In this document: one piece after another, positions 3,213 through 61,897 of the stretch
Layout of the letters: each line of letters begins with the position of its first letter
How positions within the stretch are numbered: the first letter of the stretch is position 1
Assembly: GCA_023131895.1 (NCBI GenBank)
Contig: JAGLYZ010000004.1
Coordinates: 29,895 to 93,894 of the forward strand
DNA: 64,000 bases
Origin: Candidatus Parcubacteria bacterium
GTDB lineage: Bacteria; Patescibacteriota; Minisyncoccia; Minisyncoccales; JAGMDC01
Direction of reading: 5' to 3'
Notes under the pieces: model-generated
What the model saw: only the letters and a program-made list of their open reading frames with translations
Database searches by the model: none
Told to the model about the DNA's origin: nothing
Program-made: the position numbers and the translations under genes

Positions 3213-3491
3213 ATGAACCTGAATTTAAACGAAGACAAACAAAAAAGATTAGTGTATTTAATTATAATTCTTATTGTTTTGGTTATAATAGCTTTATTTG
3301 TTTTTAGTAAAAGCTTTTTTGTAAAACAGCCGTCAATCCCTTTAGGTACTAGTTTTGGATTACAAGAAATCAGTATCAATTTTAATATTTTAGAAAATCC
3401 TTTTGTGCAGATGCTTGAACCATTTGAAGAAATTTCTTATCCTTCAGAAGAAATAGAAATAGGCAGAGAAAACCCGTTTATTACATACTAA
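3213..3491 (+). CDS. Small single-pass membrane protein, unknown function
   Basis: ORF with one hydrophobic helix (LVYLIIILIVLVIIALFVF), tightly packed in the pil operon. Confidence 0.35.
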   Translation: MNLNLNEDKQKRLVYLIIILIVLVIIALFVFSKSFFVKQPSIPLGTSFGLQEISINFNILENPFVQMLEPFEEISYPSEEIEIGRENPFITY

Positions 3492-3586
3492 AACATTTTA
3501 ACATTTTAACATTTTAGCATTTAAACATTTCTGATTTCATTTTTTGTTAATATGTTAATATGTTAGTATGTTAATATGTTTAAATG
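3491..3586 (+). repeat. Phased 8-nt repeat array (AACATNNN units, then NNNNATGT units) ending in the pilB start codon
   Basis: Octamers in one register from 3492. ATGs at 3552, 3560, 3568, 3576 and 3584, the last being the pilB start. By-eye alignment shows about 85% identity to the array at 59675-59786. Confidence 0.8.
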
Positions 3587-5311
3587 AGTTTGATAAATCA
3601 GTTAGTAGAAAAAGGTGTCTTAAATAAAAAAGCAGCTGCTTCTTTAAAAAAGGAAATAGAATTATCTGGTAAAAGAGAAGAAGAAATAATTTTACAACAA
3701 GGAATAATTAAGGAAGATGCTTTATTCCAATTAAAAAGCGAGAGTTTGAAGGTTCCTTTAAAAGAAGTTGAGCCATCAGAAGTTCTTTTAGAAGTTTTGA
3801 GATTAATTCCCAGAGATGCTGCTGAGTTTTATCATATGGTTCCTATTAGTAAAAAAGATAGGACATTGGAGATAGGGATGGTTTATCCGGATAATTTAAA
3901 AGCCCAGGAAGCTTTAAAATTTTTAACAAGACGCGAAGGCTATTCTTTCAGAGTTTATCTAATCACTTTATCTAATTTCAGGGAGCTTTTAAAACGATAT
4001 TGGACCCTTAAAAAAGAAGTAAAAAAGGCGCTTACAGAGGTGGAAACAGAAATAGCTGAAGATGAAGTTGAAATTTCTAAGAAAGCGGCTGAATTAGAAA
4101 AGCTGGGAGAAGAGGCTCCTATTTCCAAAATTGTTTCTGTAATTCTAAAACACTCTGTAGACGGGAATGCTTCTGATATCCACATTGAACCAATAAGAGA
4201 ACAGCTGAGAGTAAGGTTTCGTCTTGATGGAATATTGCATTCCTCACTTTTTTTACCTTTAAAAATTCATCCGGCAGTGGTAGCTCGGATTAAGATTTTA
4301 GCAGAGCTAAAAATTGACGAAACTAGGGTTCCTCAAGACGGCAGGATTGGCGCTAAAATTAGCAATAAAGATATTGATTTCAGGGTTTCTACTTTCCCTA
4401 CTATATTGGGCGAGAAAGTAGTGATGAGAGTTCTTGACCCGTCCAAGGGATTAAAAGATTTTAAAAGATTAGGATTAGACGGAAGAAATCTTGAAATTTT
4501 AAACAAAGCAGCTGAAAGACCTTATGGAATGATTTTATCAACTGGGCCTACTGGCTCAGGAAAAAGCACTACATTATATGCTGTTTTACAGATTTTAAAT
4601 AGGGAAGGAGTAAATATTGTTACAATAGAAGATCCAGTGGAGTATTTTATGGAAGGTATTAACCAGTCCCAGACAAAAGAAGAGATTGGCTACGGTTTTG
4701 CTACAGCATTGCGTTCTATTTTAAGGCAGGACCCGGATGTGATTATGGTGGGTGAAATTAGAGATAAAGAGACAGCAGAATTAGCTGTTCATGCTGCTTT
4801 AACCGGGCATATTGTCTTGTCTACCCTTCATACAAATACAGCTGTTGGCGCTATGCCTCGGTTAATTGACTTGGGAATAGAGCCATTTTTACTGCCCCCA
4901 AGCTTAAGCGCAATTTTGGCGCAAAGATTAGTAAGGCGGCTTTGTCCTTTTTGTAAAGAAAAAGTAAAGGCGAATATTAAAGTTAGAGAAAAGATTTTAA
5001 AAGAAATAAATTTTTTGCCAGTTTCTACTAAAGCAGGAATTAAAGTTGATGAACCTATATCTATTTGGCAGGCAAAGGGATGTAAAAAATGCAGGATGCA
5101 GGGATACACTGGAAGGGTTGCTCTTTTTGAAATTTTGGAAATGACTAAAGAGCTTTCAGAAATAGTTTTAAAGGAGCCGTCAGAAAATAATTTCCAAAAA
5201 GAGGCAAAAAGGCAGGGTATGGTTACAATGGCTCAAGACGGCATAATTAAGGTTTTAAATGGAGTTACTTCTATAGAAGAAGTGATTAGGGTTACAAAGG
5301 AAGAAGAATAA
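3584..5311 (+). CDS. pilB: Type IV pilus assembly ATPase PilB (GspE family)
   Basis: Walker A GPTGSGKST, Asp/His boxes, C-terminal tetracysteine (CPFC...CKKC), GSPII_E N-terminal-like domain. Confidence 0.95.
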   Translation: MSLINQLVEKGVLNKKAAASLKKEIELSGKREEEIILQQGIIKEDALFQLKSESLKVPLKEVEPSEVLLEVLRLIPRDAAEFYHMVPISKKDRTLEIGMVYPDNLKAQEALKFLTRREGYSFRVYLITLSNFRELLKRYWTLKKEVKKALTEVETEIAEDEVEISKKAAELEKLGEEAPISKIVSVILKHSVDGNASDIHIEPIREQLRVRFRLDGILHSSLFLPLKIHPAVVARIKILAELKIDETRVPQDGRIGAKISNKDIDFRVSTFPTILGEKVVMRVLDPSKGLKDFKRLGLDGRNLEILNKAAERPYGMILSTGPTGSGKSTTLYAVLQILNREGVNIVTIEDPVEYFMEGINQSQTKEEIGYGFATALRSILRQDPDVIMVGEIRDKETAELAVHAALTGHIVLSTLHTNTAVGAMPRLIDLGIEPFLLPPSLSAILAQRLVRRLCPFCKEKVKANIKVREKILKEINFLPVSTKAGIKVDEPISIWQAKGCKKCRMQGYTGRVALFEILEMTKELSEIVLKEPSENNFQKEAKRQGMVTMAQDGIIKVLNGVTSIEEVIRVTKEEE

Positions 5312-9190: not shown

Positions 9191-9210
9191 AATTTTTCAG
9201 CAGAAGATCC

Positions 9211-9229
9211 ACGAAGGTCGGGCCTTCGT
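9211..9229. repeat. REP-like hairpin (left of the RAYT gene)
   Basis: ACGAAGG-TCGGG-CCTTCGT, a 7-bp stem. Confidence 0.75.
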
Positions 9230-9238
9230 TTATCTAAA

Positions 9239-9955
9239 ATGCCAACAAGAAAACACAAATTAGCTAATAATGAGATTTATCATATTATTATTAGAGGAGT
9301 AAATGACTCTGAGATTTTTAAAGATATAAATGATTATTATAGAGCAATTTTTTCCATTTACGAATTTAATACTATTAACTCTGTTGATATCAGACAAAAA
9401 AGAGAGCAACGAGCTCTCACAAAGAAAAACATAAACCAAGGTCGGGCCTTCGTTGATAATAGAGACTTGTTAGTAGAGATATTATGTTTTTGTTTTATGC
9501 CGAATCATGTTCATTTATTGCTCAAGCAGATAAAAGATGATGGAATAACTAAATTTATGAGAAAATTGGGTTCAGGTTATGCAAGTTATTTTAACAAAAA
9601 ATACAGTCGAAAAGGTTATCTTTTTCAAGGAAGATTTTTTCCGGTTCATATTAAAACAGACGAACAATTGCAAGTTATTTTTGCTTATATTCACGTTAAT
9701 TCCATATCTTTGATAGAGCCAAAATGGAAAGAAATTGGAATCCAAGATATAGAAAAAGTCATTAGTTTTTTAGAGGATTATAAATGGTCAAGTTATCCTG
9801 ATTATATTGGCAAGAAGAATTTTCCTTCAGTAACCCATAGAAATTTTATGTTAGAAATGATGAATAAAGAAAAAGGTTGCAAAGATTTTATTGAAAATTG
9901 GATTAGGTACAAAAGCAAGATTAAAAAATTGCCAGATATTGTCTTGAAGAGCTAA
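9239..9955 (+). CDS. REP-associated tyrosine transposase-like protein (IS200/IS605 TnpA Y1 family, RAYT-like)
   Basis: HUH motif in MPNHVHLLL. Tyr-containing AYIHVN motif typical of Y1 transposases. Flanked by REP-like hairpins in opposite orientation. Confidence 0.8.
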   Translation: MPTRKHKLANNEIYHIIIRGVNDSEIFKDINDYYRAIFSIYEFNTINSVDIRQKREQRALTKKNINQGRAFVDNRDLLVEILCFCFMPNHVHLLLKQIKDDGITKFMRKLGSGYASYFNKKYSRKGYLFQGRFFPVHIKTDEQLQVIFAYIHVNSISLIEPKWKEIGIQDIEKVISFLEDYKWSSYPDYIGKKNFPSVTHRNFMLEMMNKEKGCKDFIENWIRYKSKIKKLPDIVLKS

Positions 9956-9979
9956 ACGAAGGCCCGACCTTCGTTTAGC
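9951..9979. repeat. REP-like hairpin (right of the RAYT gene, inverted relative to the left copy)
   Basis: GCTAAACGAAGG-CCCGA-CCTTCGTTTAGC, a 12-bp stem overlapping the RAYT stop codon. Confidence 0.75.
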
Positions 9980-10013
9980 TTTGATTTTTAGGATAATTTA
10001 GTATAATAAAATA

Positions 10014-10850: not shown

Positions 10851-10928
10851 TAAAATAATAATTTGAAATTTGTCATTTGACATTGATTTGGAATAATTTG
10901 AGATAATTTGAAATAATTTTAAAAGTTT

Positions 10929-11498
10929 ATGTTAAAATGTTATAATGTTAAAATGAATAAGGCAATGACCTTGATTGAAGTTTTGGTTGTTATTGCCATA
11001 ATGCTTATTCTTATGGCAGTAGCAGTATTTGTAAATCCCAGGCCTTCAGTAGAGCTTGATAACGCTGCTCGGCAATTGGTAAGCGACCTCCGCCGCGCCC
11101 AAAACATGGCAATGTCAGCTTCAACTCAAATAGATGGATGGGGTAATGAGATTGTTCCTTGCGGCTATGGAATTTATACTCCAAATACACAGAAATATGT
11201 TATATTTTATAACGAGACAGATTGTTCAAAATTTCAGCACTGGGGAGGACCCAATCCGCCCTGGCAGGGTAGTATAGATTTTGAAACAGTGGATTTTACA
11301 GATGTAGCTCCGGGCATTACAATAACTCAAGGAGTTTCTTTAAGCATTTATTTTATTCCTCCAAGTGGAACTACTTATATTAATGGAGATTATCCACTTA
11401 TTCCTCCTCCACCTTTGCCTTACTTTGAACTTACAGCTTCCGACGGCTCTATTAGAACTGTCACTGTCACTTCAGCCGGGAAGATTGAAATACAGTAA
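10929..11498 (+). CDS. Minor pilin, GspH/FimT-like (start probably ATG 10953)
   Basis: MNKA-MTLIEVLVVIAIM prepilin-type N-terminus. First of four consecutive pilin-like genes. The upstream part of the ORF lies in the 8-nt ATG ladder. Confidence 0.7.
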   Translation: MLKCYNVKMNKAMTLIEVLVVIAIMLILMAVAVFVNPRPSVELDNAARQLVSDLRRAQNMAMSASTQIDGWGNEIVPCGYGIYTPNTQKYVIFYNETDCSKFQHWGGPNPPWQGSIDFETVDFTDVAPGITITQGVSLSIYFIPPSGTTYINGDYPLIPPPPLPYFELTASDGSIRTVTVTSAGKIEIQ

Positions 11499-11536
11499 AT
11501 CATGTTAACATATTAACATACTAATATCTTAATAAT

Positions 11537-11569
11537 ATGCTTAAATGTTTAAATGCTAAAAAGTTAAAA
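11537..11569 (+). repeat. 33-nt direct repeat, left copy (duplicate of the 5' end of the gene at 12232)
   Basis: ATGCTTAAATGTTTAAATGCTAAAAAGTTAAAA versus ATGTTTAAATGTTTAAATGCTAAAAAGTTAAAA at 12232-12264 (one mismatch). Confidence 0.8.
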
Positions 11570-12208: not shown

Positions 12209-12231
12209 AAATTTAAAAAATAACTGTTTGT

Positions 12232-12879
12232 ATGTTTAAATGTTTAAATGCTAAAAAGTTAAAATGTGAGGGTTTCAGTTTGCTTGAGGTTTTGGTTGCC
12301 ATTACAGTGCTTATTGTTGGCTTGGTTGGTGCCATAGGTTTGATTGTTTATAATGTTTCTATCAGCAGGGCAAGCCCGGAGAAAATTATCGCTGTTAATT
12401 TAGCGCAGGAGGGAATAGAAGTGGTGAGAAACATCCGTGACAGCAACTGGCTGGCAGGTGTGGTTTGGGATCAAGATATTCCTTCTGGCAATTCTATTCC
12501 TATTTTTACAGATAATAATAGAAATGATTGGCCTTCTGACCCAGATAAATGGAGACTTAGTCATATAGGGGCTGCGGAAAGCTGGAAAGAAGATGTTTAC
12601 TATGATGATATTGATAAATTTTATGGCCAGTCAAAAAAGCAAAGCACTAACCCTGCTCAATTTCCAGACGATTGGATTTCAACAATTTTCACTCGTAAGA
12701 TCACTATTACTGAGTTTTTTGTTATTGATGAGAATCCACGTAAGTTCGCTTTTATTAAGATTGTTATGGCTAAGTTTTGGCCAGACCAAGTAAAAGTAAT
12801 TTCCCAAGTTGATTGGACTGACCGCAGCGGGAATTCTCATACCATCATTCTTGAAAACCATTTGTATAATTGGAGATAG
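12232..12879 (+). CDS. Minor pilin, PilV-like
   Basis: ...KLKCEG followed by FSLLEVLVAITVLIVGL. The only in-frame ATG (12232) is the first rung of the 8-nt ATG ladder. Confidence 0.65.
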   Translation: MFKCLNAKKLKCEGFSLLEVLVAITVLIVGLVGAIGLIVYNVSISRASPEKIIAVNLAQEGIEVVRNIRDSNWLAGVVWDQDIPSGNSIPIFTDNNRNDWPSDPDKWRLSHIGAAESWKEDVYYDDIDKFYGQSKKQSTNPAQFPDDWISTIFTRKITITEFFVIDENPRKFAFIKIVMAKFWPDQVKVISQVDWTDRSGNSHTIILENHLYNWR

Positions 12880-15216: not shown

Positions 15217-17274
15217 ATGGATAAGAAACAGACAAAAGAAAGAATTGAAAAACTGAAAAAAGTGATACGAGAAGCAAGATATAGCTATCATGTTTTAGAT
15301 AAATCAATAATGTCTGATGCGGCTTTGGATTCTTTAAAGCATGAGCTTTTTGAATTGGAGCAGAAATATCCTGAATTTATTACACAGGATTCTCCAAGCC
15401 AGAGAATAGGCGGGAAGCCATTAGATAAATTTAAAAAAGTGCGTCATACTGTTGCCCAATGGTCTTTTAATGATGTTTTTGATGAAAGCGAACTTAGAAA
15501 TTTTGACAAGAGAATGAAAAAAGAGCTTGGAACGCAAGAAATGAATTATACTGCTGAACTGAAGATTGACGGCATGCATATTATTTTAACTTATGAAAAA
15601 GGCGTTTTGAAAACTGGAGCAACCAGAGGCGACGGCAAAGTCGGTGAGGATGCCACACAAAATCTAAAAACAATTGAATCAATTCCTTTACGGATAAAAG
15701 AAAATATTGATGTGGTTGTTGAAGGAGAGATTTTTATGAGAAAATCAGTTTTTGAAAAGTTGAATAAACAGAGAAAAGAGCGAGGACAGACCTCGTTCGC
15801 TAATCCCAGGAACGCGGCTGCTGGCGCAATTCGCCAGCTTGATTCAAAAATCGTTAAAGAACGCAAGCTTGACTGTTTTATTTACGATTATTCCTGGCCT
15901 GAAAAAGATGTGCCAGAGACCCAAATTCAAGAGCTGAAAAAATTAATGGAGCTTGGTTTTAAGGTAAATAAAAATTTTCATTATTGTAAAAATATAGATG
16001 AAGTAATAAAATTCTGGAAAGATTGGCAGAAAAAAAGAGAATCCAAGGATTTTTGGATAGATGGAATAGTGGTAAAAGTAAATCGCAGGGAATATCAGAA
16101 CAAGCTTGGCTATACAGGCAAGGCGCCTAGATGGGCAATTGCTTTTAAGTGGCCTGGTGAACAGGCAGCAACGATTTTAGAAAAAGTAGTTTTTCAAATT
16201 GGCAGAACAGGCAGGCTTACGCCAGTTGCCTGCCTAAAGCCGGTCAATATTGGCGGAGCCGTTGTTTCCAGGGCAACCCTGCATAATGCTGATGAGATTA
16301 AGCGGCTGGGAGTAAAGACCGGCGATACAGTGATTGTTGAAAAAGCTGGCGATGTTATTCCTCATATTAATAGGTTTTTGCCAGCGCTTAGGCCAAAAGA
16401 TGCTAAAAATATTCAAACTCCGGGTGCCTGCCCTGTTTGCGGTTCAAAAGTAGTTAGGCCGAAAGGAGAGGTAGCGCATTATTGTTCAAACAAAAAATGC
16501 GGAGCCAGGCAAAGAAACAAACTTTCTTGGTTTGCTTCCAAGAAAGCATTTGATATTGAAGGATTAGGGCCAAAAATCATTGACCAGTTAATGGACAAGG
16601 GATTAGTTTCAAACCCTGCTGATTTATTTACATTGAAAAAAGGAGATATAATTCCTTTGGAAAGCTTGCACCGTAAGAAGCCGAAGGCTTTCCTTCGGGG
16701 ATTTGCTGAAAAATCAAGTTCTAATTTAATACAAGCTATTGAGAAAAGCAGGACAATAACTTTGCCAAAGTTTTTGATTTCTCTTGGTATAAAATATATT
16801 GGTGAGGAAACAGCAGAACTTCTTATTCGCAAGATACAAGATACAAGACACAAGATACAAAGCATTAATAATTTAATTGATTTTTTTGAAAGTAAAAATC
16901 AAGAATATTTTGAACAAATTGATGGCATAGGTCCAAAAGCAGCCACAAGTATTAAGAATTGGTTTTCCCAAAAAGAAAACATTCAGCTTTTGCGAGATTT
17001 GTTCAAAGCCGGCGTGAAGATAGAAAAAGAAAAATTAGTAAAAAGCAGTAAATTAACCGGTAGGTCTTTTGTTTTTACCGGAGAATTGAAATCAATGTCC
17101 AGAGACAAAGCAAAAGAAAGAATAAAAGAATCAGGAGGCAAAACGCCTAATTCAATAAGCAGGAATACTGATTTTCTGGTTGTTGGCAAAAGTCCTGGTT
17201 CTAAATATGAAAAAGCAAAAGCATTGGGAATTAATATAATTTTAGAAAAAGAATTTTTAGGAATGATAAAATGA
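15217..17274 (+). CDS. ligA: NAD-dependent DNA ligase LigA
   Basis: Adenylation motif ELKIDG, OB fold, Zn finger CPVCGS...C, HhH repeats, C-terminal BRCT (FVFTGEL). The start is moved to ATG 15217 because the TTG 15142 extension spans the terminator. Confidence 0.95.
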   Translation: MDKKQTKERIEKLKKVIREARYSYHVLDKSIMSDAALDSLKHELFELEQKYPEFITQDSPSQRIGGKPLDKFKKVRHTVAQWSFNDVFDESELRNFDKRMKKELGTQEMNYTAELKIDGMHIILTYEKGVLKTGATRGDGKVGEDATQNLKTIESIPLRIKENIDVVVEGEIFMRKSVFEKLNKQRKERGQTSFANPRNAAAGAIRQLDSKIVKERKLDCFIYDYSWPEKDVPETQIQELKKLMELGFKVNKNFHYCKNIDEVIKFWKDWQKKRESKDFWIDGIVVKVNRREYQNKLGYTGKAPRWAIAFKWPGEQAATILEKVVFQIGRTGRLTPVACLKPVNIGGAVVSRATLHNADEIKRLGVKTGDTVIVEKAGDVIPHINRFLPALRPKDAKNIQTPGACPVCGSKVVRPKGEVAHYCSNKKCGARQRNKLSWFASKKAFDIEGLGPKIIDQLMDKGLVSNPADLFTLKKGDIIPLESLHRKKPKAFLRGFAEKSSSNLIQAIEKSRTITLPKFLISLGIKYIGEETAELLIRKIQDTRHKIQSINNLIDFFESKNQEYFEQIDGIGPKAATSIKNWFSQKENIQLLRDLFKAGVKIEKEKLVKSSKLTGRSFVFTGELKSMSRDKAKERIKESGGKTPNSISRNTDFLVVGKSPGSKYEKAKALGINIILEKEFLGMIK

Positions 17275-25011: not shown

Positions 25012-26211
25012 TTAATTTATTCTAAGATTAGCATTAACTTTAATATTTTTCCAATTTTGAGTTTCTTTTTTATGGAAATAAGCAGTTATGCCTATCATCG
25101 CAGCATTGTCAGTGCAGAATTTTTTTGTGGGAGCTAAAAAAACAAATTGGCTGCCAGTCATTGATAATTTCTTTTTAAATTGTTTTTGCAGTTCTTCATT
25201 AGCAGAAACGCCTCCGCCAAGAATAATTGTTCTTACTTTATAATCCTTTGCTGCTTTTATGGTTTTTTTAATTAAAATATCAATTACTGCTTGTTGTATT
25301 TCCTTGCACATTGCTTGAATATATTTTTCTTTTTTTACCCTGTTAAATAAAATCTCTGATTTTCTTTTGCTGGAAGCAAAAGATTTAACAGGGTGAACCG
25401 CATATAAAACAGCGGTTTTTAATCCAGAAAAACTAAAATCATAATCCTTGCTATACATCATCGGTCTAGGTAATTTTACCCTGTTAAATAAAATCTCTGA
25501 TTTTCTTTTGCTGGAAGCAAAAGATTTAACAGGGTGAATTTTAGATTTCCATTGCCGAGCTTGTTCCGCGATGGCTGGACCGCCAGGGTAACTAAGCCCT
25601 AAAATCCGAGCTGTTTTGTCAAAACATTCCCCTGCAGCATCATCTCTTGTTTCTCCGAGAATTTTGTATTTTCCAATATCTTTCATTAAAATCAATTGTG
25701 TATGCCCGCCGCTTACAACTAGGCATATCGCAGGAAATATTTTTTTTGGATTTTGGATTTTGGATTTCTCGCCAATTTGTAGGAGCAAATTGGCGAGAAT
25801 ATGTGCCTCAATATGGTTAACTGGTATAATTTTTAAATTCCATAAACGAGCTAAAGATTTAGCGAAGTTCACACCTGTCCATAAACAAGGTTCCAGGCCA
25901 GGGCCAGTAGTCACAGCAATCAAATCAATTTTCGGTTTTATAAAGTTTTTTATTCCTGCTTTTTTCAAAGCTTTTTTCAACACTGGTAAAAGATTTTTCT
26001 GGTGTTCTCTTTTTGCCATTGCCGGGTACACTCCTCCATATTTTTTGTGAATTTCTATCTGTGATGAAACAAAATTAGAGAGAATTTCTACCCTGTTAAA
26101 TAATTTCGCTTTTGGCGAAATTCCCCGATTTATCGGGGATTTAACAGGGTGAATTTTTAAAATACTAATACAAGTATCATCACAAGATGTTTCAATTGCT
26201 AAGATAATCAT
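25012..26211 (-). CDS. tsaD: tRNA N6-adenosine threonylcarbamoyltransferase TsaD, interrupted in-frame by three palindromic elements
   Basis: IETSCDDT, YGGVYP, HIEAH, VSGGHTQL, DDAAGECFDKTARILGL, PRPM, DFSFSGLKT, GGGVSAN, FCTDNAAMI. Confidence 0.93.
   Translation of the reverse strand: MIILAIETSCDDTCISILKIHPVKSPINRGISPKAKLFNRVEILSNFVSSQIEIHKKYGGVYPAMAKREHQKNLLPVLKKALKKAGIKNFIKPKIDLIAVTTGPGLEPCLWTGVNFAKSLARLWNLKIIPVNHIEAHILANLLLQIGEKSKIQNPKKIFPAICLVVSGGHTQLILMKDIGKYKILGETRDDAAGECFDKTARILGLSYPGGPAIAEQARQWKSKIHPVKSFASSKRKSEILFNRVKLPRPMMYSKDYDFSFSGLKTAVLYAVHPVKSFASSKRKSEILFNRVKKEKYIQAMCKEIQQAVIDILIKKTIKAAKDYKVRTIILGGGVSANEELQKQFKKKLSMTGSQFVFLAPTKKFCTDNAAMIGITAYFHKKETQNWKNIKVNANLRIN
25333..25397 (-). 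repeat. Palindromic element PE copy 4 (in-frame in tsaD)
   Basis: Identical over 65 nt to copy 5. Hairpins AAAATC-TCT-GATTTT and CTTTTGC-TGGAA-GCAAAAG. Read as HPVKSFASSKRKSEILFNRV. Confidence 0.9.
25474..25538 (-). repeat. Palindromic element PE copy 5 (in-frame in tsaD)
   Basis: Identical over 65 nt to copy 4, located 141 nt away. Confidence 0.9.
26088..26153 (-). repeat. Palindromic element PE copy 6 (in-frame in tsaD)
   Basis: Same arms. Hairpins ATTTCGC-TTTTG-GCGAAAT and TCCCCGA-TTTA-TCGGGGA. Read as HPVKSPINRGISPKAKLFNRV. Confidence 0.9.
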
Positions 26212-34893: not shown

Positions 34894-35526
34894 TTATTTT
34901 AACGTTTTTATTACTTTTTTCAAGTCCACTGACAATTCTGAACTAAACTTTTTTCTCTCTCCATTCGGTAATTTTATGGTTAGTTCGTGGGCGTGTAGAA
35001 ATTGTCGTTTTAATCCTTTTGGACAGGGCTGATTTTTAAAACCGTATAATTTATCTCCAGCAATAGGATGTCCTAAAGCTGCAAAATGGCATCTGATTTG
35101 ATGTTTTCTGCCAGTTTTTGGCTCTGCTTCTATTAAAGAATACTCCTTAAATCTCTCTAAAATCCTATATTCTGTTATTGCTTTTCTTAATCCTTTTCTT
35201 TTTGCATCTGGCTCATTTGGTAAATATGTTTTTTGTTTTTTTCTATTTTTTAGAGACCGTCCTATTAAAGTTTCGATTTTACCTTTTACGGAGGACGGGC
35301 CTCCGGAGACTAATGCAAGATATTTTTTAATTACCGTTCTATTCTTAAACTGTTTTTGAAAAAAATCAAGAGCTTTGCTGTTCTTAGCTATTAACAAAAT
35401 TCCAGATGTATCTTTATCTAAACGGTGGATTCTCTTTTCAAAATCGTCAGAATTTATTCCTGCTGGCTTATCAATCACTAATAAATCATCATCTTGATAA
35501 ATAATTTTTAGCTTTTCTTTTTTCAT
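34894..35526 (-). CDS. RluA family pseudouridine synthase
   Basis: VIDKPAG, catalytic HRLDKDTSGILLIAK, KKYLALV, GRKHQIR, FLHAHEL. Confidence 0.85.
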   Translation of the reverse strand: MKKEKLKIIYQDDDLLVIDKPAGINSDDFEKRIHRLDKDTSGILLIAKNSKALDFFQKQFKNRTVIKKYLALVSGGPSSVKGKIETLIGRSLKNRKKQKTYLPNEPDAKRKGLRKAITEYRILERFKEYSLIEAEPKTGRKHQIRCHFAALGHPIAGDKLYGFKNQPCPKGLKRQFLHAHELTIKLPNGERKKFSSELSVDLKKVIKTLK

Positions 35527-47226: not shown

Positions 47227-47323
47227 CTGTTTAGTACTACTTTGTTATGGATTTTATTCTTGATAAAAACGGCTATAGATCTGGCTGTTTTTTTGTAGAA
47301 ATCGGGTTTTTGTGATAGAATAA

Positions 47324-47403
47324 AACATATAAACATACTAACATATAAACATACTAACATATAAACGAATGCTTAAATGTTAAAATGTTTGAATGTTTAG
47401 ATG
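47324..47403 (+). repeat. Phased 8-nt repeat array (5 x AACATNNN then 5 x NNNNNATG) ending in the ftsK start codon
   Basis: Ten octamers in a single register. ATGs at 47369, 47377, 47385, 47393 and 47401, the last being the ftsK start. Confidence 0.85.
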
Positions 47404-49620
47404 ATATTGGTGGCTAAGAAAAAGAAAAACAAGAAGAATAAAAAAAATATAACCAGAAAAAAAGAGAGAAAACCTCTTTTTCACCTTGATTTGTTAGAAG
47501 ACACAAAGAGAAAAATTTATGGCGTCTTAATGTTTTTAGGCGCAATTATTATTTCTCTTTCTTTTTTTAACTTATTTGGCAGAGCTGGCCAGATTTTTAT
47601 GGATTTTTCTGACTCGTTGATTGGAAAGGCGCTTTTTATTCTGCCTTTGCTTTTTATTTTAGGAGGAGTAGTTTTCTTTAGCCAGAAATATGAGCCAGAA
47701 ATAAAAAAGAATAAATTAGCTATATTTTTTGGAATTATTGTTTTGGTCTTAGGCGTATCTGGAATTTTAGGCATTACAAGCATAGATGAAGAAATAAAGC
47801 AGGGCGGATGGCTTGGTTATTTAATATCTTTTCCTTTAATCAAGGCATTTGGGACTTTGGGCGCTAGTATTGTGTTTATAACAGTAATTATTATCGGCGG
47901 CTTAATTCTTTGGCAGATTAGCCCAAAGCCGTTGAAAAAAGAAGAACCCGCCTTTGCTAAAGCTCCGGCGGGCAAGGAAAAGCCTTCATTCGCGCCCACC
48001 TTTGCTAAAGCTACGGTGAGTGAAAAAGAAAAACCGATAATTAGCGATATTTTAAAGAAAAAAGAAATTAAACTTGAATCTGCGATAGAGAAAGAAAAAG
48101 AGGAGACATCGTCCATTTTTAAATTAAAAACAAAACCGCTTACTATTTTTTCAGGAGAGGACTATCAGCCGTTGCCATTGGATTTGCTGGCAAAAGATCA
48201 GGGCTCTCCTACTTCTGGAGATACTAAAATAAATGCAGCTATAATTCAGAGAACTCTTCAAAATTTTGATATTCCAGTAGAAATGGCGGAAGTAAATATT
48301 GGACCAACAGTTACACAGTATACTTTTAAGCCCGCAGAAGGAGTAAAACTCTCAAAAATTACTTCTTTGAATAATGATTTATCATTAGCTTTAGCCGCTC
48401 ATCCTATTAGGATTGAAGCCCCTGTTCCTGGCAGGTCATTAGTAGGAGTTGAAATACCTAACAAAGGCAGAGCCAGGGTTGGCTTAAGAAACCTATTAGA
48501 GCAGCCGGAATTCCAGAATTCTCCTTCTAAACTTACTTTTCCTTTAGGAAGAGATGTAGCCGGCAATCCTGTTTTTGGCGATTTAAGCAAAATGCCGCAT
48601 CTTTTAGTGGCTGGAAGCACTGGCAGTGGGAAAACCATTTGTCTTAATAATATTATTGCAAGCTTGCTTTATAGAAATTCTTCAGAGAGTTTAAGATTTA
48701 TTTTAGTTGATCCCAAAAGAGTAGAATTTTCTATTTACAATGGTTTGCCGCATTTACTGTCTTCAGTGATCCTAACCCCGCAGAAAACAATCAATGTTTT
48801 AAAATGGTTGATTACAGAAATGGAAAGAAGATTTGACGTGCTATCTGAAGCCAAGACAAAAAATATAGCCGGCTATAATGAGATTGCAGCTGGAACTCAG
48901 AAAATAAATGGAGAAGCATTAGAGCCATTGCCTTATATTGTTTTGATTATTGATGAATTAGCTGATGTTATGGCTGCTCGCGGCAGAGAGGTTGAGGCAG
49001 GTATTGTCCGCTTGGCGCAGATGTCTCGCGCAGTAGGAATTCATTTAATTCTAGCTACTCAAAGGCCTTCAGTAGAAGTAATTACAGGACTTATCAAAGC
49101 AAATATTACAAGCAGAATCGCTTTTCAGGTTGCTTCTCAGATTGATTCTCGAACTATTTTAGATATGGCTGGCGCAGAAAAGCTTTTAGGTTTGGGAGAT
49201 ATGCTGTTTATTTCTGCAGAAGTTGCGAAACCGAAAAGAATCCAATGCGCTTATGTTTCAGAAAAAGAGATGAAGAATGTAACTAATTGGCTGAAAAAAT
49301 CAGAAGTTCCGTCAAAAGAAATTTCAGAGGAAAAAGAAAAAATAGATAAAGAAATCTCAAATTCAGTCAGTTCCATAGAAGAAGCATTGGAAAAAGAAGA
49401 GAGTTTTTATGATGAAGATCCGCTTTACGAGGAAGCGAAAAGAATCATCATTGAATCAAAAAAAGCGTCTGCTTCTCTGCTGCAAAGAAGATTGCGGCTT
49501 GGATATGCCCGGGCTGCCCGTTTGATAGATACATTAGAGGAAAGAGGAATAGTTGGTCCGTCAGACGGAGCAAAACCAAGAGAAGTTTATATTATTGAAG
49601 AAAACGAAGAAAAGATATAG
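47401..49620 (+). CDS. ftsK: DNA translocase FtsK/SpoIIIE
   Basis: N-terminal TM helices, low-complexity linker, motor domain with Walker A GSTGSGKT, Walker B IVLIIDELAD, C-terminal gamma winged-helix (LLQRRLRLGYARAARLID). Confidence 0.93.
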   Translation: MILVAKKKKNKKNKKNITRKKERKPLFHLDLLEDTKRKIYGVLMFLGAIIISLSFFNLFGRAGQIFMDFSDSLIGKALFILPLLFILGGVVFFSQKYEPEIKKNKLAIFFGIIVLVLGVSGILGITSIDEEIKQGGWLGYLISFPLIKAFGTLGASIVFITVIIIGGLILWQISPKPLKKEEPAFAKAPAGKEKPSFAPTFAKATVSEKEKPIISDILKKKEIKLESAIEKEKEETSSIFKLKTKPLTIFSGEDYQPLPLDLLAKDQGSPTSGDTKINAAIIQRTLQNFDIPVEMAEVNIGPTVTQYTFKPAEGVKLSKITSLNNDLSLALAAHPIRIEAPVPGRSLVGVEIPNKGRARVGLRNLLEQPEFQNSPSKLTFPLGRDVAGNPVFGDLSKMPHLLVAGSTGSGKTICLNNIIASLLYRNSSESLRFILVDPKRVEFSIYNGLPHLLSSVILTPQKTINVLKWLITEMERRFDVLSEAKTKNIAGYNEIAAGTQKINGEALEPLPYIVLIIDELADVMAARGREVEAGIVRLAQMSRAVGIHLILATQRPSVEVITGLIKANITSRIAFQVASQIDSRTILDMAGAEKLLGLGDMLFISAEVAKPKRIQCAYVSEKEMKNVTNWLKKSEVPSKEISEEKEKIDKEISNSVSSIEEALEKEESFYDEDPLYEEAKRIIIESKKASASLLQRRLRLGYARAARLIDTLEERGIVGPSDGAKPREVYIIEENEEKI

Positions 49621-57712: not shown

Positions 57713-59119
57713 CTATTCAAGATAATTCTTTTCAAACCACCAGGTTAGGATTTTTTGGACATCATCTTTGAGGTCGTCGGATTTTAAAAGAACAATTATA
57801 ATATTGTGCGAAGTGTTGTCTGGCAATGGCAATTCAAATATAAATATGCCGGTATATTTTGATTCTATAATAAATCCGGTTTTGCCGCCTAAAAAGTCCT
57901 TGCTTTCCGGAAAAATATTTTTGTTATGCAAATCTTCAAAATGAACTGTTCCAAAATCCTCTATTGTTTCTCCTTTGCTGATTTTCAAAAGAGGAGGCCT
58001 GGTATTGAAAATATATTGGCTCAAATAGAAAAGATCTTGTGCAGTAGAAACGTTTTTTTCGCTTAAGCCGCTCGGGTCGTCGTAAAAAGTATTTTTCATG
58101 CCAATCATTTTTGTTTTTTCATTCATTAATCTTATTGTTTTTTCTCTTCCTGAAAAGCGGGTTAAAATTTCAGCAGCGTCATTAGATGATTGAGTTAAAA
58201 GAGGATGAAGGAGTTCAACTAAATTGTATTTTTTTCCAGCTTCTAATCCTGGCGTAGAGCCATATGCTTTTAACATTTCTTTTGTAACCCAGATTGATTT
58301 TCTTAAATCATTATTCTCAATAGCAGCTATGGCAGTCATTAGTTTAGTTAAAGAAGCTATGGGCATTATTTTTTCAGGATTTTTTTCAGCCAAAATATAA
58401 TAATTATCAAGGTCGGCAATTAAATAAGATTCAGCAGATATTTCAGAAATAACGAAGGTCGGGCCTTCGTTGGCTAACGAAGGCCCGACCTTCGTTAGCT
58501 TGTCAATTATTAAAACAGGCATTTCTATCTCTGCAGCATTATAAATGTATTCTGCATCTTCATTAGAGAATCTAACACAACCGCCAGTATAATTGAATTC
58601 AGTTGATTGGCCATTGGAATAATACGGTTCTCCGTGAATATAGTATTTACCGTAAAAATTAATGCTCCATGGCATATAAACATGAGCAATATTGGAAAAA
58701 GCAGTTTTGTGTCCGGAAATCACTTTATAAAGACCCGAAGGAACTCCTCCCCAAAATTCAGGATCTCCTTTGGCTAAAATAGGAAGTTCTTTTTCTAATG
58801 CGCCATTTTTATAAATTTGAGCTTTCATTTCTGAAAGATTAATTTCTAAAAAATCTGTTTTTTTAGAAATAAATTCCTGCCTTTTTTCAAAACCAAAATC
58901 TTTTAATTGTTTTAGTTTTATTTCTTTTTGCTTGAGTCCTTGAAGCGTATCAGCGCTGAGAATAGTCTGATTACTTTTAGTCTCTACAAAAATTTCATTG
59001 CCAGGCATTATAAAAATTAAAAAAGCAAAAAGCCCGATTAAAAGGGCTAAAAAAATAATAGATATGCAGTTTTTTTTCAGTTTAGAACTAATCATCAGTT
59101 TATCCCGCACCTTTTTCAA
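57713..59119 (-). CDS. Fusion of an L,D-transpeptidase (YkuD) domain and a D-alanyl-D-alanine carboxypeptidase (peptidase S11) domain
   Basis: YkuD catalytic block YIHGEP...TGGCVRF. S11 SxxK motif PIASLTKLMT plus SSND (SxN). REP pair in-frame between the domains. Confidence 0.8.
   Translation of the reverse strand: MKKVRDKLMISSKLKKNCISIIFLALLIGLFAFLIFIMPGNEIFVETKSNQTILSADTLQGLKQKEIKLKQLKDFGFEKRQEFISKKTDFLEINLSEMKAQIYKNGALEKELPILAKGDPEFWGGVPSGLYKVISGHKTAFSNIAHVYMPWSINFYGKYYIHGEPYYSNGQSTEFNYTGGCVRFSNEDAEYIYNAAEIEMPVLIIDKLTKVGPSLANEGPTFVISEISAESYLIADLDNYYILAEKNPEKIMPIASLTKLMTAIAAIENNDLRKSIWVTKEMLKAYGSTPGLEAGKKYNLVELLHPLLTQSSNDAAEILTRFSGREKTIRLMNEKTKMIGMKNTFYDDPSGLSEKNVSTAQDLFYLSQYIFNTRPPLLKISKGETIEDFGTVHFEDLHNKNIFPESKDFLGGKTGFIIESKYTGIFIFELPLPDNTSHNIIIVLLKSDDLKDDVQKILTWWFEKNYLE
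58451..58497. repeat. Inverted pair of REP-like hairpins inside a CDS
   Basis: AACGAAGG-TCGGG-CCTTCGTT GGC TAACGAAGG-CCCGA-CCTTCGTTA. Translated (minus strand) within KLTKVGPSLANEGPTFVI. Confidence 0.85.
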
Positions 59120-59135
59120 AGAAAAGGTGCGGGAT

Positions 59136-59594: not shown

Positions 59595-59674
59595 ATTATA
59601 TTAGAATATCACAATAATTATTTTCTGGCAATGTTGACAAAAATTTTGTTTTGTTTAAGATAGAGAAGTGATTA

Positions 59675-59786
59675 CAACATCTTAACATTTTAACATTCAA
59701 ACATCTTAACATTTCTGATTTTATCTTTTGTTAATATGTTAGCATGTTAGTATGCTTAAATGTTATTATGTTAAAATGATTTTATG
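59675..59786 (+). repeat. Phased 8-nt repeat array ending in the groES start codon (homologous to 3491-3586)
   Basis: AACATNNN x5, conserved core TTCTGATTTTATCTTTTG, then ATGs at 59736, 59744, 59752, 59760, 59768, 59776 and 59784, the last being the groES start. Confidence 0.85.
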
Positions 59787-60077: not shown

Positions 60078-60085
60078 ATTTATAG

Positions 60086-61897
<1,812 letters not shown>

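Follow-up and report, generated by a model that had tools for sequence, protein, structure and literature searches.

A REP doublet read in frame in the interdomain linker of a YkuD-Peptidase_S11 enzyme of a Parcubacteria bacterium

Known REP systems and the palindrome at 58450-58497

Repetitive extragenic palindromes (REPs) are by definition extragenic, and to our knowledge the systems that REP doublets forming hairpins (REPINs) make up with REP-associated tyrosine transposases (RAYTs) have been studied almost only in Proteobacteria. REPINs and other REP doublets are mobilised by RAYTs (Nunvar 2010, PMC2817692; Bertels and Rainey 2011, PMC3116915), and inverted hairpins flanking the transposase gene are the hallmark of the latter (PMC2817692). 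In P. fluorescens the repeats are overwhelmingly extragenic, 14 of 1067 REP 16-mers overlapping genes (PMC3116915). Here we describe a REPIN-like doublet that is read in frame between the two catalytic domains of a bifunctional enzyme. It lies in a stretch of 64,000 nucleotides from Candidatus Parcubacteria bacterium, a member of the Candidate Phyla Radiation (CPR), taken from contig JAGLYZ010000004.1 (positions 29,895 to 93,894) and called the window below.

The core phenomenon, palindromic repeats inside genes, is already known. Di Nocera et al. (2013, PMC3733652) reported REPs with GTAG/CGTC tags and REP dimers lying wholly inside open reading frames (ORFs) of several phyla, where they encode extra residues. 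Their cases include a pseudouridine synthase, a DNA ligase and repair genes, with about the same recB site hit in two Xanthomonas species, and the authors proposed that intragenic REPs occupy flexible linkers or loops. Rickettsia palindromic elements (RPEs), the classic case of palindromes inserted in frame, are selfish DNA found in many protein genes, whose function is apparently kept (PMC10969869). The features of the window that bear on the comparison are the following.

57713 to 59095, minus strand: host gene, membrane-anchored bifunctional L,D-transpeptidase (LDT; YkuD domain) and DD-carboxypeptidase/endopeptidase (Peptidase_S11 domain, S11), 460 aa
58450 to 58497, no strand: REP doublet (REPIN-like), perfect 48-nt palindrome with 22-bp arms and the loop GGCT
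58451 to 58471, plus strand: left REP hairpin, AACGAAGG-TCGGG-CCTTCGTT
58476 to 58496, minus strand: right REP hairpin, reverse complement of the left one; the plus strand reads AACGAAGG-CCCGA-CCTTCGTT
9210 to 9230, plus strand: 5' flanking REP of the RAYT gene, one mismatch
9239 to 9955, plus strand: RAYT-like Y1/HUH transposase gene, 238 aa, HUH motif PNHVHLL, tyrosine motif YIHVNS, Pfam Y1_Tnp 8.4e-11
9434 to 9454, plus strand: REP within the RAYT ORF, read in frame as NQGRAFV, at the variable loop of the family; one mismatch breaks one stem pair
9955 to 9975, minus strand: REP on the 3' flank of the RAYT gene, in inverted orientation to the 5' copy

The 48-nt element reads TAACGAAGGTCGGGCCTTCGTT-GGCT-AACGAAGGCCCGACCTTCGTTA; 46 of its 48 positions are self-complementary, and both exceptions fall within the loop. 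Each 21-nt half is a small hairpin of its own (8-bp stem, 5-nt loop), and the halves are exact reverse complements, inverted with GGCT between them. The right hairpin with its flanks, GCTAACGAAGG...CCTTCGTTAGC, resembles the 3' REP of the RAYT gene. The ends of the element, (AG)CTAA(A)CGAAGG...CCTTCG(T)TTAG(CT), lack the GTAG/CGTC tetranucleotide tag. Its GC content is 0.56 vs 0.32 in the remainder of the gene, and its folding energy is -29 kcal/mol for the DNA (z = -11.6) and -41.7 kcal/mol for the mRNA (z = -10.4).

The first-pass annotation of this DNA had seen here two of the RAYT-flanking hairpins placed head to head, and rightly so: neither arm has a mismatch to the REP consensus or to the REP at the 3' end of the Y1_Tnp gene. 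It had placed the pair at 58451-58497 with the spacer GGC; the pair itself stands, and the exact extent is 58450-58497 with the spacer GGCT. The REP 21-mer has 8 strand-matches in the window at up to three mismatches, against 0.01 expected. They correspond to five sites, at 9210, 9434 and 9955 around or inside the Y1_Tnp gene and at 58451 and 58476 in the doublet; one further, diverged copy lies in rluA.

The palindrome spans from base 2 of codon 208 to base 1 of codon 224 of the host gene, and residues 208-224 of the protein are LTKVGPSLANEGPTFVI. The minus-strand translation of the palindrome itself is (L)TKVGPSLANEGPTFV(I), which places the in-frame peptide LTKVGPSLANEGPTFV between YkuD (residues 90-204, Pfam 1.7e-12) and Peptidase_S11 (226-422, Pfam 3.3e-28). 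Its position in the linker and its in-frame reading without a break of the ORF, both proposed earlier, are borne out by the Pfam boundaries, the intact ORF of 460 aa and the codon alignment described below. The tryptic peptide predicted across the REP-encoded linker is VGPSLANEGPTFVISEISAESYLIADLDNYYILAEK. The length of 48 nt is a multiple of three, and two of the three frames of the coding strand are free of stops. One frame of the opposite strand is also open, and because the DNA is a palindrome it gives the identical peptide; three of the six strand-and-frame combinations are stop-free overall. With half of the frames open and a length divisible by three, read-through is therefore not improbable once such an element sits in a tolerant place.

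The ORF of the host gene was listed as 57713..59119 on the minus strand; homologues begin with MISSK, and the true start is probably the ATG at 59095. A hairpin with a 14-bp stem (ATCCCGCACCTTTT-TCAAAG-AAAAGGTGCGGGAT) at 59102-59135, between the upstream 152-aa gene and this ATG, contains the listed TTG start at 59119, which therefore seems not to be the true one. The protein begins with a membrane helix at its N-terminus and carries both catalytic domains in one polypeptide. The enzyme is of interest in itself: a DD-carboxypeptidase, which makes tetrapeptide donors, is joined to an L,D-transpeptidase, which consumes them.

Like a REPIN, the window element consists of two inverted REP hairpins that fold into one long hairpin, and it has the very sequence of the hairpins on either side of a single Y1/HUH gene, where they are mutually inverted. 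Unlike a REPIN, it is intragenic and translated, its spacer has only 4 nt, no dispersed extragenic population was seen in ~69 kb, and the host belongs to Parcubacteria; the RAYT of the window is divergent and has a third REP inside its own ORF. It differs from the REPs of Di Nocera et al. in the missing tag, in the phylum, in replacing a linker of conserved length rather than adding to it, and in that one orthologous linker was hit in 3-4 lineages, each with a lineage-specific REP. As RPEs do, it sits in frame inside a gene; RPEs are ~100-150 bp long, add a peptide segment, have no known RAYT partner and are probably of unrelated sequence, whereas the window element measures 48 nt and lies in a CPR genome, outside the RPE size range. 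The window RAYT and the transposases of IS200/IS605 are of the same superfamily (Pfam Y1_Tnp). The end hairpins of IS200/IS605 elements are recognised as single-stranded DNA, are in direct orientation and differ from each other, whereas those flanking the window RAYT are identical (the mismatch of the 5' copy aside), inverted and supplemented by a copy inside the ORF. What is new is the CPR host group with its divergent RAYT branch, the exchange of a conserved, motif-bearing linker with its length preserved, the repeated acquisition at one orthologous linker of REPs matched to the lineage, and the REP copy built into the RAYT ORF.

The interdomain linker in orthologues

A homologue search of 5.8 billion proteins gave 3662 matches; the domain census was made on the 120 listed and the linker statistics on 116 aligned. 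For the segment from IIDK to PE(I/L)SA, 89 of the 116 homologues share a length of 16 aa, and 115 fall within 15-19 aa. Its conserved motif is K-E-x-D-x-Y-x-Y ... F-P-E; the D is present in 99 sequences, the two Y in 102 and 100, F in 84 and P in 103. All five of these residues are missing from the window protein. Fully non-canonical, Gly/Pro-rich linkers occur in only three lineages among the 116 homologues: the window protein with P0001, P0009, and P0010.

The closest relatives without the REP pair (P0002, P0003, P0004 and P0006) are 78-80 % identical to the window protein overall and 81-85 % outside the linker, and they combine the canonical linker with the same YkuD-S11 fusion. In the codon alignment the flanks ATT GAC AAG | ... 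| ATT TCT GAA ATA are conserved around the replaced segment. Between them, 14-15 AT-rich ancestral codons (GAA AAT GAT GGC TAT AAA TAT AAT TCT TGG AAT AAT AAA ACA) are absent from the window, and 16 REP codons stand instead; the domain spacing is therefore maintained, the distance from IIDK to (S/P)E being 17 residues in the window vs 15-16 in the close relatives. A neighbour-joining tree built without the linker columns groups the window protein and P0001 with the four canonical relatives (bootstrap 0.985); P0007 and P0008, also canonical, branch next, with P0009 and P0010 outside them. Judged from the tree, the canonical linker is the ancestral state, and the codon alignment shows no net insertion: the REP pair stands in for the ancestral linker at near-equal length. 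The earlier statement that a repeat had entered the coding region thus holds for its presence in the ORF and fails for a simple entry. Orthologues do not encode the same linker peptide by non-palindromic DNA, which would have spoken against a REP origin; their peptide is different and its DNA AT-rich and non-palindromic, and the REP origin stands. By-eye inspection of both junctions of the ancestral linker revealed no convincing common target motif.

The first-pass annotation had also suggested that the pair marks the point where separate LDT and S11 genes were fused by recombination. Its position exactly between the two Pfam domains is the sole support for this. Both domains are present in all 120 listed homologues of the 3662 matches, and the nearest relatives, as well as ~112 of the 116 aligned homologues, are fused without any REP. 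The gene order at the locus (groES/groEL, the 152-aa gene, the YkuD-S11 gene, a holin-like gene, secG and an SBP_bac_5 gene) is common to the closest canonical relatives, and synteny is kept on either side of the gene. The fusion itself is old and found widely, and a fusion scar, the least probable of the explanations considered, is effectively excluded by the architecture census and the tree.

A palindrome assembly error or a decaying pseudogene could also be suspected, as the source is a metagenome-assembled genome, the five conserved linker residues are lost and the linker is modelled with lower confidence. In the AlphaFold2 model (mean pLDDT 89) both domains are predicted confidently and the REP-encoded linker forms a low-confidence coil (10-residue blocks at 56 and 76, residues 208-210 below 50); the corresponding blocks of the canonical homologue P0002 are at 76 and 92, a comparison that is weak evidence, the alignment being dominated by canonical linkers. 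An identical element is present in an independent metagenome assembly (scaffold L003, ENA), so two assemblies of two strains carry it. The window and this scaffold share 99.6 % nucleotide identity over 5.7 kb of alignable sequence, and since both have the identical palindrome their divergence postdates the acquisition. Within the host gene they differ by 13 synonymous vs 5 non-synonymous codons, small numbers that point to purifying selection. The ORF is intact, and H154, C173, S303-S304, K405 and G407 are invariant in the 116 sequences including the window, a check that holds by construction, the window protein being the first row of the alignment. An artefact or a pseudogene is accordingly very improbable and, like the fusion scar, effectively excluded. 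Of the 18 codons differing between the two strains, 16 fall in codons 279-367 of the S11 domain, which suggests a short inter-strain recombination tract.

Orthologues of three other lineages contain GC-rich palindromic DNA in the same linker.

L101 2462-2509 (protein P0010): REP doublet, AACGGAAG-ACGGG-CTTCCGTT GGCT TACGGAAG-CCCGT-CTTCCGTT
L100 10603-10631 (protein P0009): REP singlet, AATTGTGGGAGG-CCCGG-CCTCCCACAATT, 12-bp stem, 16-aa linker
L102 ~4900-4960 (protein P0005): pure 60-nt insertion with the hairpin TTCACGGC-TAC-GCCGTGAA, flanked by the direct repeat AAATAT

The L101 doublet has the same boundaries, GGCT spacer and 17-codon length as that of the window; its loop differs, and two positions of its stem are changed, in the same manner in each of the four arms. 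The two elements share ~70 % of nucleotides and encode different peptides. The RAYT genes in L057 and L071 have the L101 core, CGGAAGCCCGTCTTCCG, as their REP core, and the L100 core equals the REP of L038 apart from the loop. A recombination tract between the window and L101 was sought in 30 flanking codons per side and not found: upstream, the identity to the window is 0.87 for L001, 0.87 for L004 and 0.80 for L101, and downstream it is 0.93, 0.82 and 0.67. The REP of the relative genome (L015 type) is absent from the LDT locus of that genome, L004. Because the canonical linker is read as ancestral, at least three separate acquisitions at this linker are the simplest reading of the alignments. 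Either the site acts as a strong filter, such DNA being tolerated only here and at this length, or the process is targeted or templated. In P0005, a 43-aa N-terminal extension (L102 4172-4300) is encoded by DNA with the long-range inverted repeat AACCCCGTTAGAAAA ... TTTTCTAACGGGGT, which may be an insertion resembling a miniature inverted-repeat transposable element or a mis-called start.

Recurrence could also reflect selection on the nucleic acid. The hairpin could be kept as an mRNA pause or attenuator between the domains, which would aid co-translational folding or give an LDT-only product by partial termination, or as a binding site for the RAYT or a host factor. In favour, 3-4 lineages gained hairpins at this linker, the folded mRNA is very stable, and between the window and L101 the hairpin is preserved and the peptide is not. 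A terminator scan flags the element on the coding strand (20-bp stem, tail TATTTCTGAA). Neither L101 (ATTCCAGAA) nor L100 shares the T-rich tail, and the reading as an intrinsic terminator was rejected on this ground although the pattern matches in the window. A truncated transcript would be without a stop codon, an Rfam search with the element at a permissive threshold returned noise only and no family, and ~112 of 116 orthologues do without any hairpin. Perfect arms matching the REP master are expected of a recent copy, with no need for selection. We therefore regard a nucleic-acid function as improbable, if less so than an artefact.

The RAYT-like gene and its hairpins

The motifs PNHVHLL and YIHVN are invariant across the homologues of the RAYT-like protein, which thus combines the HUH motif with the catalytic tyrosine. 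The search gave 1751 relatives, mostly from CPR metagenomes, with 54-68 % identity among those examined; a PDB sequence search found no relative. The genomic context of the gene varies between related genomes. At the 3' flank of the window gene the hairpin is part of an extended palindrome, AGCTAAACGAAGG-CCCGA-CCTTCGTTTAGCT (9950-9980). The flanks were compared in four loci at first and then in 53 parsed loci, and inverted flanking hairpins, as expected of a RAYT, are also present in most of 46 distinct related loci. They are lineage-specific: stems include GAGAA, GGAGG, CGAGG, GGAAG, GAAGG, AGAGA and AGACG, with loops CCCGN or CWG.

The flanking hairpin is repeated within the RAYT ORF at approximately nt 185-215 (loci L015-L099), in frame and ~20 aa before the HUH motif. 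As the hairpins had been selected for pairing, a covariation count was replaced by a control of matched against mismatched loci. A locus shares at least 12 nt between its own flanks and its own loop in 26 of 35 non-redundant loci, with a median match of 19 nt; with the rest of the ORF, which is five times longer, the flanks do so in 1 of 35, and mismatched flank/loop pairs do so in 10 %. By this comparison the ORF-internal REP co-varies with the flanking REPs across lineages, and the length of the variable loop also differs between lineages. Within ±6 kb of 36 related RAYT loci additional REP copies are rare, the triad at the RAYT gene being mostly the only copies. In a scan of 185,579 species-representative genomes, the source genome not being among them, the REP 19-mer had 8 matches; seven are in unrelated non-Patescibacteria genomes and are most likely due to chance, and one is an intergenic hairpin in another Paceibacterota genome. 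Neither a REP inside the RAYT ORF nor a RAYT of CPR bacteria is mentioned in the literature searched.

The diverged copy of the window lies in the gene for the RluA pseudouridine synthase (34894-35526, minus strand).

35286 to 35308, minus strand: diverged REP-class hairpin in the RluA gene, CGGAGG-CCCGT-CCTCCG

The codons of this site, TCC GGA GGC CCG TCC TCC GTA, read SGGPSSV. Compared with the current REP, one compensated stem pair and the last loop base differ (4 differences in the tally). In most homologues the loop here is VGNLKNKE, which the hairpin replaces without a change of length (8 aa for 8 aa). G(S/G/K)P(S/P)S is the reading of this loop in four further orthologue lineages; in the lineage checked at the DNA level (L103, 116-823), it is encoded by GGAAG-TCCGT-CTTCC, a compensatory variant of the hairpin. 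The NAD-dependent DNA ligase gene ligA (15217-17274, plus strand) has at 16681-16698 the hairpin CCGAAGG-CTTT-CCTTCGG, with the REP stem and a different loop, read as KKPKAFLRG between the zinc-finger and helix-hairpin-helix domains; it may be REP-derived.

These copies raise the question of whether a REP can be copied over coding DNA, by RAYT priming or by microhomology-mediated template switching to a REP donor. Such copying would overwrite a loop or linker at about the same base count and would keep the copies of a genome matched to the cognate hairpin of the RAYT. The near-equal lengths fit it (48 nt for 42-45 in the LDT-S11 linker, the RluA loop, and 16-17 aa in the L100 and L101 linkers). 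So do the agreement of RAYT-internal and flanking REPs within lineages, the change of the same two stem positions in all four arms between the window and L101 doublets, the identity of the L101 core with a RAYT-borne REP core, and flanking codons free of a recombination tract. No such mechanism is known for Y1 transposases, and length selection on the linker or loop alone could filter the products of ordinary insertion plus deletion. The pure 60-nt insertion in L102, the varying RAYT loop length and the mismatch between the RluA hairpin and the current REP also speak against it. We consider this length-preserving copying the main alternative, and clearly less probable than the acquisition discussed in the following section.

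Origin of the doublet and other repeats in the window

The doublet, a REPIN as Bertels and Rainey use the term, is probably a RAYT-family REP doublet that was acquired secondarily in a permissive linker and now serves as a flexible tether; the old linker would have been lost together with this acquisition or shortly afterwards, with selection acting on the spacing. By its arms it belongs to the REP family of the RAYT-like Y1 transposase of this genome, it is specific to the lineage of the window, and it would have been gained in the linker-coding part of a YkuD-S11 fusion gene that is much older. The RAYT may mobilise the REP as single-stranded DNA, as the analogy with TnpA-REP of E. coli and with IS200/IS605 suggests. 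The old linker could have disappeared in the same event or through a later deletion selected for linker length. The product would be a Gly/Pro-rich, probably flexible tether in an enzyme that seems to be still under purifying selection. The hairpin itself is most likely a tolerated passenger, which would survive because the linker is among the few permissive sites of a gene-dense genome.

Several points weigh against such an acquisition. A plain insertion should add 16 aa to the linker, which is not so lengthened, and we know of no mechanism by which a Y1 transposase would replace target DNA. REP hairpins also occupy this linker in two other orthologue lineages, and the agreement of L101 in boundaries, spacer and length, with a different REP, is hard to square with random insertion and independent deletions; it hints at targeting, selection or a templated patch. 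No dispersed intergenic REP copies were seen in ~69 kb of the genome, so the REP family need not be actively mobile. Finally, the RAYT scores 42.7 bits against the NCBIfam model REP_Tyr_transpos, below its cut-off of 80, and represents a divergent branch.

We speculate, with slightly more doubt than about copying as such, that the RAYT-REP of Parcubacteria could be a coding-compatible hairpin module. One lineage-specific REP would be built in frame into the RAYT gene, and copies would overwrite loops and linkers in conserved housekeeping proteins (LDT-S11, RluA, possibly LigA) at preserved length, staying cognate via RAYT-dependent copy-over and not insertional transposition.

A divergent RAYT family, common in CPR bacteria, thus keeps its own hairpin in frame in the transposase gene, and its hairpins repeatedly end up translated within essential enzymes, where they replace a conserved linker at unchanged length. 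Such cases are natural experiments on how much sequence a structured interdomain linker requires. They suggest that selfish palindromes could persist by turning protein-coding where intergenic space is almost nil, and for RAYT biochemistry they pose the mechanistic question of insertion plus deletion vs templated overwriting.

Another repeat family of the window is built around TACCCTGTTAAAT, at 2557, 8104, 20627, 25323-25397, 25474-25538, 26085 and 54856. Variable GC-rich hairpins adjoin its members, two copies of 65 nt have the same sequence, and some members are part of long ORFs (read ..HPVK..). It is probably the other intragenic repeat family alluded to in the first-pass annotation. Intergenic ATGTTAA/TTAACAT-like arrays with an 8-nt period are found at 3473-3596, 10928-10956, 11536-11569, 12223-12267, 47323-47404 and 59665-59784. 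They also occur just upstream of groES and may be promoter or regulator-binding arrays. The groES-groEL spacer is ~180 nt long in the window (60078-60260, local GC ~0.48), L003 and L001 and has 2-3 nt in L004 and L100, a difference that we read as a lineage-specific insertion.

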